A DNA stretch of 64,000 nt from Escherichia phage vB_EcoM_ACG-C40: the sequence record NC_019399.1, one strand, 5' to 3'. The notes below the pieces were generated by a model, which had not been told where the DNA came from, made no database searches, and saw only the letters and a list, made by a program, of their open reading frames with translations. This document shows, one piece after another, positions 9,976 to 45,910 of this stretch (position 1 is its first letter; each line of letters starts with the position of its first letter). The position numbers and the translations under genes are program-made.

Positions 9976-10090
9976 ATTTTACCCTTAATTGATTAACCAA
10001 GCATTGATAAGCACTAAACTATACTGCGAATAAAATTCTGGACCAAAATGAAAAATCATATCATTTATAGTATCCATAATGTAATTCAAT

Positions 10091-10561
10091 TTAATCATGT
10101 TTCCACACCCCATCGGTATTTGACCAAAGCCGCTGATTATCTGATCCTCGCCACAGCTTTTTGGTCGGAAGATTTTTCTCATACTTCCCATCAATAATAA
10201 CATCAACATATTTAAGCATTTCTAGTTGTTTAATATCTTCAAACTTATATCCTGTCCACAACCAAATGCTTTTATTGGGATAAAGATTTTTTACTGTTTG
10301 AACAATGCAATGAATAACATCTCGGTTATCAGGATAGAGAGGGTCTCCTCCAGTTATAGTTAATCCTTCTATATAATCATTATTCAAACATTCAATCAAT
10401 TGTTCTAGTGTTTCACCAGTGAATGGAATACCATTTCTAGCATTCCATGTTGATTTATTATAACACCCTTCACATTTATGCAAACAACCTGTAACGAAAA
10501 GAACTGTCCTGCATCCAGGACCATTAACAAAGCAGCACGGGTATATTCTGTCATAATTCAT
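10091..10561 (-). CDS. nrdG: anaerobic ribonucleotide reductase activating protein NrdG (radical SAM)
   Basis: 156 aa from ATG 10561; Cys cluster CLHKCEGCYN; ATGA overlap with the upstream stop. Confidence 0.88.
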   Translation of the reverse strand: MNYDRIYPCCFVNGPGCRTVLFVTGCLHKCEGCYNKSTWNARNGIPFTGETLEQLIECLNNDYIEGLTITGGDPLYPDNRDVIHCIVQTVKNLYPNKSIWLWTGYKFEDIKQLEMLKYVDVIIDGKYEKNLPTKKLWRGSDNQRLWSNTDGVWKHD

Positions 10562-11388
10562 AATAATATCCAATTTTTCCAAGCTTCATCAGTAGAATTA
10601 CAGCGTTTTAGTATAAGATGTCTAGAAACTTTTATGGCATTTGAGCACTTTTTAATTGAATCATATTTAATACCGTCAACTGAAACGGTTTTGCTAGTTG
10701 GAGAAATTTTTCCATACATTGGATTTTTTGAACCAACTTGAAGTCCTTTTAAAGCTTTTGAAAGCTTTTGTCTAGATTCCAATGACATGGGAGAATTCTT
10801 TTTACCTTCAATAATTCGCTTGCGATGAAGTTCGCGTTCTTCTTCACTCAAAGAATTGTAATATTTTTTAACACCGTTTGATATAGATAATTTATCTTTC
10901 TCAGACCGCTCTCCAGCTAATTTACTTCTAACATCTTTTCGCTTCATAGCTATGCTTACGGCTTTATTTAAATTTGCTTGATGCTCTGGCGTACGTTTAT
11001 ATTTCTTTAAAGCACGTGAAATAGCTATTTTAGTTTCTTCTGTTCTCTTTTTACCTTTATTTGCTAAACTATTTTTGCGGCGATGTTCAAGTGTCTGTTC
11101 ATAGGCAGTTCCACCTTTTCCACCAGGTTTAATATTATATGTATTTTCTTTTAGACAATACTCTTCGGTTACAAGTTCAGCTTCTTTATCATACATCTGT
11201 TTTTCATTATCAAAAACATGTAAAATTTCTTTATTAAAATTTTTTCTACCATATTTTAATAAAGCGGCACGAATCAATGTTCCTGACCCCATATAACCGT
11301 CATTTATGTTATCGGTGCTATGCGCACCGATATATTCCTTTGAATTAATTATATTTGTTATTTTATAAATTATATAATACCTATGCAT
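10558..11388 (-). mobile_element. freestanding GIY-YIG homing endonuclease (Seg-like) between nrdD and nrdG
   Basis: 276 aa; N-terminal YIIYKITN...KEYIGAHS motif; basic repeat-rich C-terminus. Confidence 0.7.
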
Positions 11389-13198
11389 GTTTTACTCGTT
11401 TTACCATTTCTTTCATTTTACCTAAATTCCATGGAACAACGCTAGGAGTTCCAAGATATCCGCATGTTCTTCTTATTGTATTCATCTTTTTAGGATCAGT
11501 TTCTCCACAAATAGAACAAATAAATCCGTTTTCAGTAGGAGTCATTTCATGGGTGCTTCCGCATGTAAAACATTTATCTACTGGCATATTAACACCAAAA
11601 TAATCTAAATGTTGTGCAGCATAATCCCATACGGCCTCAAGACCCTTTAAGTTATTTTTCATATCAGGAAGTTCAACATAAGAAATGTGACCACCTGTCG
11701 CAATGAAATGATATGGTGCTTCTCGAGAAATCTTTTCAAACGGAGTAATATTTTCTTCTACTGAAACATGGAAACTGTTAGTGTACCAGCCTTTATCAGT
11801 AACATCTTTTACACTTCCATATTTTTCAGTATCAAGTTTACAGAAGCGATAACAAAGGTTTTCAGCGGGAGTAGAATACAAGCTAAAAGCAAAACCGGTT
11901 CTTTCAGTCCACTGTTTAAGACGAGCATTCATTTTAGTTAAAATTTCCTGTCCAATATCACGACCGACAAGAATATTCAATTCGTGAATACCAATGTATC
12001 CTAGGGACACTGAACTTCTACCGTTTTTAAATAACTCAATTATATCGTCATCAGGTTTAAGACGAACCCCGAATGCACCTTCTTGGTAAAGAATAGGAGC
12101 AACAGTAGCTTTAACTCCTTTTAAGGAACTAATTCTACACATCAAAGCTTCAAAACACAAATCCATACGTTCATTGAATAATTCAACAAATTTCTGTTCG
12201 TTAAATTGTGTTCCAATATAAGAATCTAATGCAATACGAGGAAGATTCAGTGTTACAACACCAAGATTATTACGTCCATCAAGAATTTCATTACCAGTCG
12301 AATCTTTCCATACGCTCAAGAAACTACGGCAACCCATTGGAGAAACAGGAACAGATGAACCAGTGATAGCTTTATTGTTCTTAGCTGAAATAATATCAGG
12401 ATACATCCTTTTGCTTGCACACTCTAGAGCAAGCTGCTTAATATCATAGTTCGGATCGTCTTTGTAAAGATTAACACCTTCTTCAACGAACATAACAAGC
12501 TTAGGGAAAATAGGAGTTATCCCATCACGACCGAGACCTTTAATACGATTTTTCAGAATTGCTTTCTGAATCATTCGTTCAGTCCAGTCAGTTCCTGTAC
12601 CAAATGTAATTGTTACAAAAGGCGTTTGTCCGTTTGAACTAAAGAGAGTATTTACTTCATATTCATAAGCTTGGAATGCATCGTATACATCTTTTTCTGT
12701 TTTAGATTGAGCATAATTCAACGCATCAGCGATTTGCCATTTTTCTGCATCCTCAATATGTTTTGCATAGGTGCGTTTAACATAAGGAGAAAGTACTTTA
12801 TCTACATTCGCAAAAGTCGTTCCGCCGTATTGGTGGGAAGCAACTTGCGCAGTAATTTGTGCCATAATTGCAGTAGCAACACCGATTGATTTAGGAGTTT
12901 CAATCTGTGCATTACCGAGCTTAAATCCGTTCTCAAGCATTCCTTTTAAATCTACTAAACAACAATTAGTAAATGGAAGAGCAGGGGAATAATCAATATC
13001 GTGGAAATGGATAATTCCGCTTTCATGCGCTTTCATAATAAAAGACGGGACCATATTTTTGGCAATGTGTTTAGACACAATACCAGCCATAAGGTCCCGT
13101 TGAGTTGGAAAAACACGAGAATCTTTATTAGCATTCTCGTTTAAAAGGTCTTTATTAGTTTTATGAATCAATCCTTCAATTTCTTTTTCAATTGTCAT
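11381..13198 (-). CDS. nrdD: anaerobic ribonucleoside-triphosphate reductase NrdD (intronless)
   Basis: 605 aa continuous ORF; C-terminal glycyl-radical motif RRTCGYLG; C-x2-C...C-x2-C zinc site. Confidence 0.93.
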   Translation of the reverse strand: MTIEKEIEGLIHKTNKDLLNENANKDSRVFPTQRDLMAGIVSKHIAKNMVPSFIMKAHESGIIHFHDIDYSPALPFTNCCLVDLKGMLENGFKLGNAQIETPKSIGVATAIMAQITAQVASHQYGGTTFANVDKVLSPYVKRTYAKHIEDAEKWQIADALNYAQSKTEKDVYDAFQAYEYEVNTLFSSNGQTPFVTITFGTGTDWTERMIQKAILKNRIKGLGRDGITPIFPKLVMFVEEGVNLYKDDPNYDIKQLALECASKRMYPDIISAKNNKAITGSSVPVSPMGCRSFLSVWKDSTGNEILDGRNNLGVVTLNLPRIALDSYIGTQFNEQKFVELFNERMDLCFEALMCRISSLKGVKATVAPILYQEGAFGVRLKPDDDIIELFKNGRSSVSLGYIGIHELNILVGRDIGQEILTKMNARLKQWTERTGFAFSLYSTPAENLCYRFCKLDTEKYGSVKDVTDKGWYTNSFHVSVEENITPFEKISREAPYHFIATGGHISYVELPDMKNNLKGLEAVWDYAAQHLDYFGVNMPVDKCFTCGSTHEMTPTENGFICSICGETDPKKMNTIRRTCGYLGTPSVVPWNLGKMKEMVKRVKHA

Positions 13199-13668
13199 TT
13201 TAAACTCTTTCTAAGCTGCTTCTTAAATGAAGCTATTAATTGTGTTTTGGTGTCAGATTCATTATATTCAAATCCTCTTTGAAGCATCTCGGCCATCATT
13301 TCCTCTTTTCCTAAACGAGAAAATTCCTTTGATTTATCTCCAACGAAGTTAGGGTGAATATTATTTTGGGTGTAATCGGATTTTAAATAAGTAAGTAAAT
13401 TTTCTAACCATTCAAGATAATCAACACCTTGTCCCTTTAAGCCAGAACGATTAAATTTGTGCTTCATTTGACCTTCTGCGGCATTGCATAGATTACAAAG
13501 CAATCCACGTACCTTTCCTGCTTTTGGTCCATTTAATTCATGGTCATGATCGAGGTGATTAGCTTGAACATCAGGATTTAGTTCTCGTTGGCAAATTAAG
13601 CATTTACCATTTTGTGCATCATAAAATTTCTGTTTTTCTTCTTTATATAATTTGCCAGTCAATAACAT
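13195..13668 (-). CDS. 49: endonuclease VII (Holliday junction resolvase) gp49
   Basis: 157 aa; CxxC...HLDHDHE...CNLCN. Confidence 0.93.
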   Translation of the reverse strand: MLLTGKLYKEEKQKFYDAQNGKCLICQRELNPDVQANHLDHDHELNGPKAGKVRGLLCNLCNAAEGQMKHKFNRSGLKGQGVDYLEWLENLLTYLKSDYTQNNIHPNFVGDKSKEFSRLGKEEMMAEMLQRGFEYNESDTKTQLIASFKKQLRKSLK

Positions 13669-13709
13669 AATAAACCCTTACCTTAAATAGATAAGGGTAT
13701 TTATTATTT

Positions 13710-36042: not shown

Positions 36043-36118
36043 TGGTCGAGGCAGTAGGGATCGAACCTACGACCCAGGACTTAGAAGGTCCTTGCTCTTC
36101 CTTCTGAGCTATGCCCCG
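36043..36118 (-). tRNA. tRNA-Arg (anticodon UCU)
   Basis: hand-folded cloverleaf; 7-bp acceptor, GCTC/GAGC D-stem, loop CTTCTAA, T-loop TTCGATC, CCA encoded. Confidence 0.8.
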
Positions 36119-36122
36119 TAAT

Positions 36123-36198
36123 TGGGGTGACCGATGGGAGTCGAACCCATGACTACGAGAATCACAATCTCGAGTTCTACCAACTGAACTACGGCCAC
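36123..36198 (-). tRNA. tRNA-His (anticodon GUG)
   Basis: cloverleaf with loop TTGTGAT, discriminator C, CCA encoded; no encoded G-1. Confidence 0.65.
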
Positions 36199-36312
36199 AT
36201 TAATACCTACTCCAACAATCATGATGTCTTCACACGAAATTAAGAGAAGAGTGATCAGTTCAACCCCTATAATCGCGTCAAGTAGATATTAATGTGACAG
36301 TTGTCACAAATT

Positions 36313-36387
36313 TGGCGGACGTGATAGGATTCGAACCTATAACCAATCGCTTAACAGGCGATCGCTCTGCCATTGAGCTACACATCC
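36313..36387 (-). tRNA. tRNA-Asn (anticodon GUU)
   Basis: perfect anticodon stem ATCGC/GCGAT, loop CTGTTAA, T-loop TTCGAAT, CCA encoded. Confidence 0.7.
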
Positions 36388-36391
36388 AAAT

Positions 36392-36478
36392 TGGTGGGGA
36401 GTGATGGAGTCGAACCACCCGAGTCGCAATGACAATGAATTTACAGTCCACACCGCTACCTCTACGGGATAACTCCCC
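36392..36478 (-). tRNA. tRNA-Tyr (anticodon GUA), class II
   Basis: 87 nt; acceptor GGGGAGT/ACTCCCC; loop CTGTAAA; long variable arm; T-loop TTCGACT. Confidence 0.65.
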
Positions 36479-36490
36479 TAATTCATAATT

Positions 36491-36565
36491 TGGTGGCCCT
36501 GGGTGGAATTGAACCACCATCTGGCGATTATGAGTCGCTTGCTTGAACCTTCCAGCTACAGGGCC
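36491..36565 (-). tRNA. tRNA with CAU anticodon (Ile2 by T4 position, or Met)
   Basis: acceptor GGCCCTG/CAGGGCC; loop CTCATAA; CCA encoded. Confidence 0.7.
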
Positions 36566-36566
36566 T

Positions 36567-36642
36567 TGGTGCTGATTGACGGAATCGAACCGCCGACCTT
36601 CTCATTACAAGTGAGTTGCTCTACCTACTGAGCTAAATCAGC
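36567..36642 (-). tRNA. tRNA-Thr (anticodon UGU)
   Basis: 76 nt cloverleaf; loop CTTGTAA; T-loop TTCGATT. Confidence 0.8.
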
Positions 36643-36647
36643 AAAAC

Positions 36648-36737
36648 TGGCGGAGGCGATAGGATTTGAACCTATGAGTCGCCGGAGCGACTGCCGGTTT
36701 TCAAGACCGGTGCATTAAACCACTCTGCCACACCTCC
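36648..36737 (-). tRNA. tRNA-Ser (anticodon UGA), class II
   Basis: 90 nt; loop CTTGAAA; long variable arm; 2 nt from the tRNA-Pro 3' end. Confidence 0.8.
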
Positions 36738-36739
36738 AG

Positions 36740-36813
36740 TCTCCATACAAGGATTTGAACCTTGGACCTCCTGATCCCAAATCAGGCGCTCTACCAAACT
36801 GAGCTACACGGAG
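36740..36813 (-). tRNA. tRNA-Pro (anticodon UGG); CCA not encoded
   Basis: loop TTTGGGA; T-loop TTCAAAT; 3' end followed by CT then tRNA-Ser, a dimeric precursor arrangement. Confidence 0.8.
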
Positions 36814-36823
36814 TAAATTGAAT

Positions 36824-36897
<74 letters not shown>

Positions 36898-36902
36898 AAA
36901 TT

Positions 36903-36989
36903 TGGTGCGAGAAGTGGGACTCGAACCCACAAGGAAATCATTCCGCAGCATTTTAAGTGCTGTGCCTTTACCAATTTGACCATTCTCGC
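36903..36989 (-). tRNA. tRNA-Leu (anticodon UAA), class II
   Basis: 87 nt; GCGAGAATGGTCAAATTGG...; loop CTTAAAA; long variable arm. Confidence 0.85.
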
Positions 36990-45043: not shown

Positions 45044-45910
45044 ATGAAAAAATCTAACACAGTTCAATTTAGATACATATATAAAACAACCGTTACTAAT
45101 CCGAAAGGATTAGTACGGGTTTATATTGGTAAACATGAATCTAGATATTTTGATTTAGAAAATGATAAGTATAGAGGTTCCGGTGATTATATTAAAAAGA
45201 TACGTAATAAACCTGGTTATAAAATAGATTTTGAAATAATTGAATTTGTTTCTACTTATGAAATTCTCAATTCAAGAGAAAGATATTGGATTTCGAAATA
45301 TAAATCATCTGATATTCTATGTACCAATATAAAATCCGGCGGTGATGGTTTTTCATCCGAAGATTTGAAGAGAATGTGGTCTAATCCTGAATATAGGAAA
45401 GCTCAATTGAAGGCATTAGCTAAATCAACGTCAACTAAAGAATTTTCAGAGAAAATATCTAAAATAAACAAAGAAAGATGCGCATCGCCAGAATATCGAA
45501 AGAAAATGAGTAATGCGATGAAAACTGCTTTTGAAAATGATCCAACATTAAAAATTCGTATTTCTAATACCGTTAAATCTTTATGGAAATCCGATGAATA
45601 TAGAAACAAATTAATCAATCATCCAGGAAAAATAGAAGGAACGAAACAATCATGGAATGATCCTTTGATAAGAAAATCGAGATTAGATGCTAGAAATAAA
45701 AAACTAAGATCAGTTGAACCTTGGATTAGTATAGAAAAAGTCAAAAAACTTTGGGAGGATTTGGGAAAACCACATCCACAGAAATACAAATGGTTTAGAG
45801 AAAAAGCAATTGAACACGACCTCCCGGATGTAAGTTATAACGCAATTTTAAAAGCGTTGAAAAAATGTGATTATAAATTTACATCATTAGAGAATTCAAC
45901 AATTGGCTAA
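45044..45910 (+). mobile_element. GIY-YIG homing endonuclease (Seg-like) inserted after gene 5
   Basis: 288 aa; N-terminal YIYKTT...VYIGKHES; three repeats of the SNPEYRK type. Confidence 0.7.

Follow-up and report, generated by a model that had tools for sequence, protein, structure and literature searches.

The free-standing GIY-YIG homing endonuclease gene segH at the nrdD/nrdG junction of Escherichia phage vB_EcoM_ACG-C40

The 276-aa open reading frame (ORF) between nrdD and nrdG of Escherichia phage vB_EcoM_ACG-C40 is very likely (probability about 0.9) segH, a free-standing Seg-type (GIY-YIG) homing endonuclease gene that lies precisely at the nrdD/nrdG junction of a T-even (Tequatrovirus) phage and spreads by intronless homing with co-conversion. 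The gene, its position, and its homing behavior are already known and were published in 2005, and segH is annotated in the public genomes of T6 and PP01. The locus was analyzed within a 64-kb stretch of the ACG-C40 genome (64,000 nt of NC_019399.1; “the window”) and consists of three genes:

13198..11381, minus strand: nrdD, anaerobic ribonucleotide reductase large subunit, 605 aa, uninterrupted
11388..10558, minus strand: segH, free-standing GIY-YIG homing endonuclease gene, 276 aa, between nrdD and nrdG
10561..10091, minus strand: nrdG, radical-SAM activase of NrdD, 156 aa

NrdD has the same length as its counterparts in T2, T6, and HP3 and is matched over the full length of the Pfam NRDD model (1–562 of 562, E = 1e-171) as well as by Gly_radical, while NrdG matches Fer4_12 (5e-48) and Radical_SAM and aligns with NrdG of T2, T4, and T6. 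The segH start codon (ATG, 11388–11386) falls within nrdD, so that the two genes overlap by 8 nt; nrdD terminates with TAG at 11383–11381, and the segH stop codon (TGA, 10560–10558) shares an ATGA with the nrdG start codon (ATG, 10561–10559); these coordinates confirm the ORF and both overlaps as given in the initial annotation. ORF calling places the nrdG start further upstream, at a TTG (10582), whereas the ATG at 10561 yields the MNYDRIYP start that is common to NrdG of T2, T4, and T6. A chance ORF was rejected for segH on the basis of 602 homologues at E ≤ 1e-3; by our own estimate from base composition, an open frame of 276 codons in DNA of 31% G+C would arise by chance with a probability of ~1e-9.

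The encoded protein is 100% identical over 276 aa (tblastn) to SegH of phage RB3 (ABI48949.1), from a record that is worded “nrdD partial, segH complete, nrdG partial” (AY262138.2). In T6 and PP01, segH is annotated at the same nrdD/nrdG position, overlapping its neighbors by 8 and 4 nt as in ACG-C40, and the segH loci of RB3, T6, and LZ2 (GenBank AY262138, AY262137, and AY262139) share with ACG-C40 the position, the 8-nt overlap with nrdD, the ATGA overlap with nrdG, and a variant nrdD tail. Apart from a longer divergent patch at the head of nrdG (to nt 57) and the mosaic Tequatrovirus background, nothing of substance distinguishes ACG-C40 from RB3 at this locus. The ACG-C40 genome is another Tequatrovirus mosaic, the best database match being 96.7% over 25 kb. 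For SegH, the 2005 work reportedly described site-specific cutting of the allele that lacks the gene and, in mixed infections, super-Mendelian inheritance. By its title, that paper named segH as a homing endonuclease gene replacing mobC (Sandegren, Nord, and Sjöberg, Nucleic Acids Res 33:6203, cited in PMC2988022), and a 2010 review (PMC2988022, Table 1) and a preprint (bioRxiv 10.1101/2022.08.31.505936) place T4 mobC at nrdG/nrdD with segH taking its place in relatives. Elsewhere in the literature searched, SegH is mentioned almost only in reference lists.

SegH is built from a catalytic domain (residues 1–95), a helical linker with a NUMOD3 motif (~100–230), and an I-TevI-type DNA-binding domain (~226–276). 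The AlphaFold2 model has a mean pLDDT of 87, rising to 94–98 for residues 1–90, and the only Foldseek matches at probability 1.00 are structures of I-TevI (1MK0, 1LN0, and 1I3J). The best of these is the I-TevI catalytic domain 1MK0 (TM 0.67 on the target, probability 1.00), and 1I3J matches the C-terminal DNA-binding module at the same probability, so that the modeled fold has counterparts for the catalytic (GIY-YIG) as well as the DNA-binding half of I-TevI. Similarly, a profile of 36 homologues searched against the PDB matched only the I-TevI catalytic domain, aligning Y8, Y19, E69, and N85 of SegH with Y6, Y17, E75, and N90 of I-TevI. Within the 36-sequence alignment, Y8 (in “IIY”), Y19-I20-G21, E69, and N85 are invariant or nearly so, with the catalytic Glu (E69) and structural Asn (N85) invariant throughout. 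The family assignment in the initial annotation is thus upheld: the ORF has a GIY-YIG core and an I-TevI-like fold, and it lies outside any intron in the arrangement typical of intronless homing. SegH reached I-TevI only via profile and fold searches (sequence identity 22–25%); a single-sequence search of the PDB gave nothing meaningful, the best hit being an unrelated protein at E = 0.14. Both enzymes have the same build, an N-terminal GIY-YIG domain followed by a long linker and a C-terminal DNA-binding domain, but SegH is free-standing, whereas I-TevI is encoded in the T4 td intron, and the SegH linker is longer, helical, and carries NUMOD3. Among Pfam models, NUMOD3 is recovered clearly (33.8 bits against a cutoff of 20.4, E 3e-8) and I-TevI_DNA-bd falls below its cutoff (21.1 against 27 bits). 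SegH belongs to PHROG 314, “homing endonuclease” (2e-60).

Some features of the protein could be read as those of a decaying or domesticated remnant, which would have lost nuclease activity and be kept by linkage or as a DNA-binding regulator in the manner of the autorepressing I-TevI. The GIY-YIG Pfam models score below their gathering thresholds (SegE_GIY-YIG, 18.6 bits against a cutoff of 25; PF01541, no match), a score that is diagnostic rather than a defining biochemical feature, and many homologues at E < 1e-27 have PF01541 or PF19835. Moreover, the segment of I-TevI with the catalytic R27 is an insertion relative to the Seg profile, so that the Seg-type domain has no aligned helix there and no residue of SegH stands out as the catalytic arginine; the closest basic residues are R40 (K or R in 26 of 36 sequences) and K45 (33 of 36). 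I-TevI itself doubles as an autorepressor (PMC2988022). However, segH is a full-length ORF, the four catalytic positions (two Tyr, one Glu, and one Asn) are invariant, the catalytic domain is modeled with high confidence, and 46 phage records encode SegH at ≥ 99% identity. The RB3 enzyme is also said to be active. The identical RB3 protein is a reported homing endonuclease, at least by the title of the paper (Sandegren et al., 2005). Loss of function is very unlikely, and the gene is intact.

An intron-borne origin was also considered, in which segH would belong to a self-splicing element, such as a group I intron, at the 3′ end of nrdD, comparable to I-TevII in T4 nrdD. The nearest solved relatives of SegH are indeed domains of an intron-encoded enzyme, and some database records label SegH homologues “group I intron endonuclease.” On the other hand, since segH overlaps both the nrdD stop codon and the nrdG start codon, there is no room for intron RNA. 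Around both segH junctions, the RNA is no more stably folded than shuffled sequence (z = 0.75 and 0.29), and an Rfam search of the whole window found no group I intron at the gathering score. An intron-encoded ORF of the I-TevII type is refuted by this gene geometry, the window having neither the 1033-nt intron of T4 nrdD nor any other, and the intron reading can be practically dismissed in favor of a free-standing gene. The uninterrupted state of nrdD, as originally annotated, follows from the full-length NRDD match, from the absence of an Rfam intron, and from direct comparison at the following site:

12660..12661, minus strand: empty insertion site of the I-TevII-encoding group I intron of T4 nrdD, located by comparison with T4 nrdD

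In T4, the insert follows nt 538 of nrdD, whereas ACG-C40 nrdD is continuous there (12661/12660), and the surrounding 80 nt differ from T2 by a single upstream mismatch, the 40 nt downstream being identical. The missing intron is unrelated to segH because at least five segH carriers (EC128, SP21535, FL23, FL44, and GRNsp7) show an excess of about intron size. Their match to the 3,701-nt query is split in two and spans ~4.73–4.75 kb, an excess of ~1,030–1,050 nt that fits the T4 nrdD intron, and four of the five annotate both nrdD and “homing endonuclease” twice.

A synthetic empty-site query was covered over at least 80% of its length by 690 records, and a 60-row sample spread across the ranking contained 40 contiguous empty sites, seven with segH, and two with mobC. 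Other queries matched the following numbers of records: 71 encode SegH at ≥ 90% identity, 79 phage records, and only those, matched the segH-linked nrdD tail (72-nt query), and 32 encode mobC at ≥ 95% identity. Thus, segH is sporadic, present in about 70–80 of ~690 close relatives (roughly one in ten) and always at the nrdD/nrdG junction, in phages of Escherichia, Shigella, Salmonella, and Yersinia. Database-wide, the slot is occupied by segH in ~10% and by mobC in ~5% of cases and is empty in the rest. In most relatives nrdD directly abuts nrdG, as in T2, where the nrdD stop codon overlaps the nrdG start codon, and T4-type phages have the HNH gene mobC in the slot. The ORF is therefore not conserved at this position among T4-like phages, T2 and most relatives being empty and T4 lacking segH. 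The contrast with T4 drawn in the initial annotation stands for the nrdD intron, which is present in T4 and absent here, but had missed mobC, so the T4 slot is not simply vacant. Like segH, mobC is free-standing, has no promoter of its own, overlaps its neighbors, is sporadic, and is linked to a divergent nrdG patch, although the catalytic families (HNH and GIY-YIG) are unrelated. The first 17 nt of mobC duplicate the nrdG start, and a Slopekvirus relative of mobC in phage Miro lies next to nrdG, not nrdD. The 2010 review (PMC2988022) gives the activity of MobC as not determined.

On both sides of segH, the coding sequence of the conserved neighbors is divergent:

11449..11381, minus strand: segH-linked variant nrdD tail, 69 nt up to the end of the gene, of which the final 60 are 62% identical to T2
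10550..10505, minus strand: segH-linked variant nrdG head, nt 12–57 of nrdG, delimited by mismatches to T2 in a multi-phage comparison

The remainder of nrdD is ~97% identical to T2. The variant tail begins directly after the RRTCGYLG codons, which we take to be the glycyl-radical motif, and encodes ...TPSVVPWNLGKMKEMVKRVKHA, in place of ...NPNERGFNLGKNKEIMHRVKHQ in the T2/T4 type. In nrdG, 14 mismatches to T2 fall within nt 12–57 and only seven in the remaining 414 nt, and the changes include D10C, together with V19T in ACG-C40 and T6. The right edge of the patch varies between carriers; it reaches nt 57 in ACG-C40 and T6, and nt 12–30 alone are divergent from T2/T4 in each of the four segH carriers compared. 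An 80-nt nrdG-head query matched 91 records at ≥ 90% identity and 711 at 80–90%. The segH DNA differs from that of RB3 at 2 of 831 nt and from that of T6 at 9 of 831 nt; in the adjacent body of nrdD, 48 of ~1,412 nt are different from RB3. The linkage of a divergent nrdD tail and nrdG head to segH fits homing with co-conversion of flanking markers, as far as can be judged from sequence comparison, and common ancestry of the carriers could account for part of the linkage without recent homing. A Slopekvirus-type donor of the variant nrdD tail was rejected, as the tails of KLB3 and Miro resemble the T2 type and not the segH type.

The expression of segH is probably tied to that of nrdD. The T4 late-promoter consensus TATAAATA occurs 11 times in the window, as expected by chance, with none between 10 and 14 kb, and sigma-70-like sites in the segH region are fewer than in shuffled sequences. 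No hairpin masking the ribosome binding site, of the kind known for I-TevI and segB, was detected at the segH or nrdG start. The lack of a nearby late promoter and of such a hairpin makes it probable that segH shares the nrdD transcript and is only weakly translated, through coupling to the nrdD end. During co-infection with a relative lacking segH, the C-terminal module is predicted to bind DNA and the GIY-YIG domain to cut the other genome near the nrdD/nrdG junction; the recombination-dependent break repair of the phage would then copy segH and adjacent donor sequence into the cut genome, resulting in intronless homing with co-conversion. The same lifestyle is described for SegF and SegG (PMC2988022). 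The target probably lies in or beside the 3′ end of nrdD, because distant SegH relatives stay attached there even where nrdG is 2.7 kb away. SegH-like genes that are 47% identical to SegH and near-identical to each other occur directly after nrdD in phages KLB3 and PF-CE2, which are assigned in their records to Slopekvirus and Pseudotevenvirus, respectively, and their nrdD genes are 95–100% identical in the last 120 nt and 58–95% further upstream.

Alternatively, segH may mainly serve the phage by cutting the DNA of competitors, with marker exclusion favoring the nrdD-nrdG alleles of the carrier and the spread of the gene a by-product. Localized marker exclusion and co-conversion are reported for free-standing T4 endonucleases (PMC2988022), and the coding sequence of both neighbors carries variants in tight linkage with segH, including amino-acid changes in the NrdD tail and NrdG D10C. 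Sequence data do not separate this competitive role from selfish homing, but the presence of segH in only ~10% of relatives suggests no strong general advantage, and a role chiefly in competition is regarded as unlikely, if worth weighing, beside selfish homing.

It is rather doubtful, yet conceivable, that the mobile unit is a ~0.9-kb cassette of segH together with an alternative 22-residue NrdD C-terminus and an alternative NrdG N-terminus with D10C, a position otherwise occupied by Asp. A cassette of such extent fits phage FL18, in which nrdD homology starts at about the beginning of the variant tail and only a 77-nt nrdD tail remains beside segH. The co-transferred changes could be a determinant of target-site immunity, or NrdD and NrdG could form a co-adapted pair of enzyme and activase that penalizes separating recombinants; such a pair, if real, would help keep segH in place. 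SegH reportedly also cuts DNA that carries segH, in which case the divergent flanks would do more than simply confer immunity, or would not confer it.

Compared with the other T4 Seg endonucleases, the N-terminal domain of SegH is 30–50% identical to the products of genes annotated as segC, segD, and segE, whereas its C-terminal half is confined to the SegH lineage; the insertion site differs from those of SegA–SegG and the target presumably differs as well. The free-standing homing endonuclease was recognizable from raw sequence, and the delimited segH-linked flanks may be useful for T-even phage engineering or for using the locus as a recombination marker. Public annotation of the gene is inconsistent, the same gene being named segD in RB3, RB5, RB6, RB7, RB9, and RB10. 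In Yersinia phage PST, a gene labeled “mobC” adjoins a segH-type nrdG head and may be segH.

The 276-aa ORF between nrdD and nrdG is an already known and named gene, segH. Megablast with window positions 10000-13700 found 65 phage records covering at least 80% of this region, the top matches being PP01 (98.0% identity) and T6 and RB3 (97.8% each), and the PP01 and T6 records annotate the ORF as segH. A tblastn search showed 100% protein identity between the ORF and SegH (ABI48949.1) of GenBank AY262138.2, an RB3 fragment of 2.7 kb whose description reads "nrdD partial, segH complete, nrdG partial"; fragments of this kind also represent T6 (AY262137) and LZ2 (AY262139). The reading of the ORF as a free-standing GIY-YIG homing endonuclease gene in the initial annotation is supported, for a feature known already. 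Among segH loci of the T6/RB3 type it is unremarkable, and the window comes from a T-even mosaic (best phage-collection match 96.7% over 25 kb). The segH gene is labeled "segD" in the RB3-group genomes KM606994-KM606999 (RB3, RB5, RB6, RB7, RB9, and RB10). In Yersinia phage PST (KF208315), a gene labeled "mobC" may be a mislabeled segH, because the adjoining nrdG head is 100% identical to the segH-type head of the window.

All genes of the region are encoded on the minus strand; from gene 49 they run through nrdD, segH, nrdG, and small ORFs to nrdH:

13668..13195, minus strand: gene 49, endonuclease VII
13198..11381, minus strand: nrdD, a single open frame of 605 aa (Pfam NRDD, 1-562 of 562, E = 1e-171)
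11388..10558, minus strand: segH, 276 aa, with its ATG 8 nt inside the nrdD end and its TGA overlapping the nrdG ATG as ATGA
10561..10091, minus strand: nrdG, with its ATG at 10561

Every element of the earlier description was correct, including an uninterrupted 605-aa nrdD, which matches the Pfam model end to end, and the placement of the ORF with its 8-nt and ATGA overlaps. ORF calling extends nrdG upstream to a TTG at 10582; judged by the N-terminus MNYDRIYP common to the NrdG of T2, T4, and T6, the true start is the ATG at 10561. No T4 late-promoter consensus occurs between 10 and 14 kb of the window, no RNA structure around the segH and nrdG junctions was better than shuffled sequence, and the segH ATG is preceded by no more than a weak GAG. 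These observations fit a cassette without a promoter of its own, transcribed by read-through from nrdD, an arrangement described for several T4 free-standing endonucleases (PMC2988022).

Since the ORF overlaps both of its neighbors, segH is not intron-encoded, and Rfam identified no group I intron in the whole 64 kb. The nrdD gene of T4 is interrupted after nt 538 by a 1033-nt intron that carries I-TevII. The absence of this intron here, as initially proposed, was confirmed by the window being continuous at the T4 intron site (12661/12660). In the 80 nt shown at this site, the window differs from T2 at one upstream position, and the 40 nt downstream are identical. Presence of segH does not preclude the nrdD intron: matches in EC128, SP21535, FL23, FL44, and GRNsp7 fall in two pieces whose spans exceed the megablast query by ~1,030-1,050 nt, in line with the 1,033-nt intron.

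On the single SegH sequence, NUMOD3 was the sole Pfam model above threshold, while the I-TevI DNA-binding and SegE GIY-YIG models gave sub-threshold scores; PHROGs returned "homing endonuclease" (2e-60). SegH homologs in a large protein collection often contain PF01541 or PF19835. Searched against the PDB, a profile built from an alignment of 36 of these homologs matched the I-TevI catalytic domain and nothing else. The residues invariant in that alignment, Y8, Y19, G21, E69, and N85, correspond to I-TevI Y6, Y17, G19, E75, and N90; the sole canonical residue not placed in SegH by the profile and the alignment is the counterpart of arginine R27. An AlphaFold2 model (mean pLDDT 87; 94-98 over residues 1-90) had confident Foldseek matches only to the catalytic (1MK0, 1LN0) and DNA-binding (1I3J) domains of I-TevI. 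A second Seg-type GIY-YIG ORF at 45065-45682 (plus strand), 27% identical to SegH over ~200 aa, is probably a segC-like gene by position and similarity.

Close to segH, the flanking genes diverge from those of T2. The nrdD gene is ~97% identical throughout except for the last 60 nt (62%), and nrdG identity is 79% over nt 1-47 and reaches 96-100% from about nt 95 on. Mismatches are concentrated at the nrdD end (34 in the last 85 nt) and in nrdG nt 12-57 (14), altering the NrdD C-terminus from ...NPNERGFNLGKNKEIMHRVKHQ (T2) to ...TPSVVPWNLGKMKEMVKRVKHA (window) and NrdG at D10 (to C) and V19 (to T). Only 79 records contain the variant nrdD tail; each is a phage of Escherichia, Shigella, Salmonella, or Yersinia, and the adjoining gene, where annotated, is segH or "homing endonuclease"; the variant nrdG head occurs at ≥90% identity in 91 records, versus 711 at 80-90%. 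Comparison of four carriers (the window, T6, RB3, and FL18) with three non-carriers (T2, T4, and HP3) showed that strict linkage to segH is confined to the final 69 nt of nrdD and to nrdG nt 12-30. The right-hand boundary varies among carriers, as nt 36-57 of nrdG are T2-like in RB3 and FL18 and not in the window and T6. Between the window and RB3, segH differs at 2 of 831 nt and the adjoining nrdD body at 48 of ~1,412 nt. Taken together, the divergent flanks, their linkage, the varying boundary, and the conservation of segH fit a horizontally spread cassette with variable co-conversion tracts.

Other features were observed around these flanks. In Escherichia phage FL18 (PP400780; FL18 segment 2409-3077, equivalent to window 11381-11457), nrdD is gone, and the interval between gene 49 and segH holds another Seg-like ORF of 222 aa (MNVVYKLSF...YYYIGSK), distinct from segH and joined in frame to an nrdD remnant of no more than the final ~77 nt of the segH-type tail; nrdD homology begins almost exactly at the start of the segH-linked patch. 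The 10-mer CATGCATAGG (window 11379-11388) spans the segH start codon and recurs ~20 nt before the T2 nrdD end in another frame; this recurrence may be coincidental or a relic of the junction formed when the gene first inserted. At 10506-10521 (minus strand; nrdG codons 14-19), a 6-bp hairpin (GTCCTG GATG CAGGAC) precedes a T-run; T2, T4, RB3, and FL18 have GCCCTG ... CAGGGT here, so that a single pair is altered on both sides, from T-A to C-G. Linkage alone could explain these paired changes, as only two haplotypes were seen.

The nrdD/nrdG junction is not always occupied by segH. In T2 it is empty, the nrdD stop overlapping the nrdG start, and in T4 it holds mobC, a free-standing endonuclease gene of the HNH family whose insertion site is given as nrdG/nrdD (PMC2988022). 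The initial comparison with T4 held for the nrdD intron and I-TevII and omitted mobC. For a synthetic empty-site query (the last 500 nt of nrdD plus nrdG), 690 records gave ≥80% coverage; among 60 rows drawn from across the ranking, 40 were contiguous and empty, 7 contained segH, and 2 contained mobC. SegH at ≥90% identity was found in 71 records and MobC at ≥95% in 32. HP3 has mobC and lacks the nrdD intron.

SegH relatives lie directly after nrdD in Klebsiella phage KLB3 (Slopekvirus) and Enterobacter phage PF-CE2 (Pseudotevenvirus per its record), 47% identical to SegH and one residue apart from each other, behind an identical 53-nt spacer. Identity between the two nrdD genes is 95-100% over the final 120 nt and 58-95% in the sequence before that, and the PF-CE2 nrdG is 2.7 kb beyond the SegH relative. 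A MobC relative in Klebsiella phage Miro overlaps the nrdG start. An alternation of SegH-like (KLB3, PF-CE2) and MobC-like (Miro) endonuclease genes around nrdD/nrdG also occurs in other Straboviridae genera. From these positions and that in T4, the SegH lineage tracks the nrdD 3' end and the MobC lineage the nrdG 5' end, and on this positional pattern the SegH target probably lies within or adjacent to the 3' end of nrdD, which in the empty site is contiguous with the nrdG head. SegH reportedly also cuts segH-carrying DNA, so the divergent patch may not confer immunity.

The nrdG genes of the mobC carriers T4 and HP3 are 43-68% identical to T2 and the window at nt ~95-280 (window 10467-10282), 79-89% in the first ~94 nt, and 85-100% at nt ~283-470; the divergent block has the appearance of a mobC-linked counterpart to the segH-linked patch. 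The opening 17 nt of T4 mobC (T4 segment 3539..3523; compare window 10561..10545), ATGAATTATGACAGAAT, repeat the start of nrdG and encode MNYDRI, and mobC appears to have borrowed this start and the ATGA coupling to nrdD. Elsewhere in the window, nine tRNA genes are clustered at 36046-36989 (minus strand); as T4 has eight, the set may differ slightly from that of T4.
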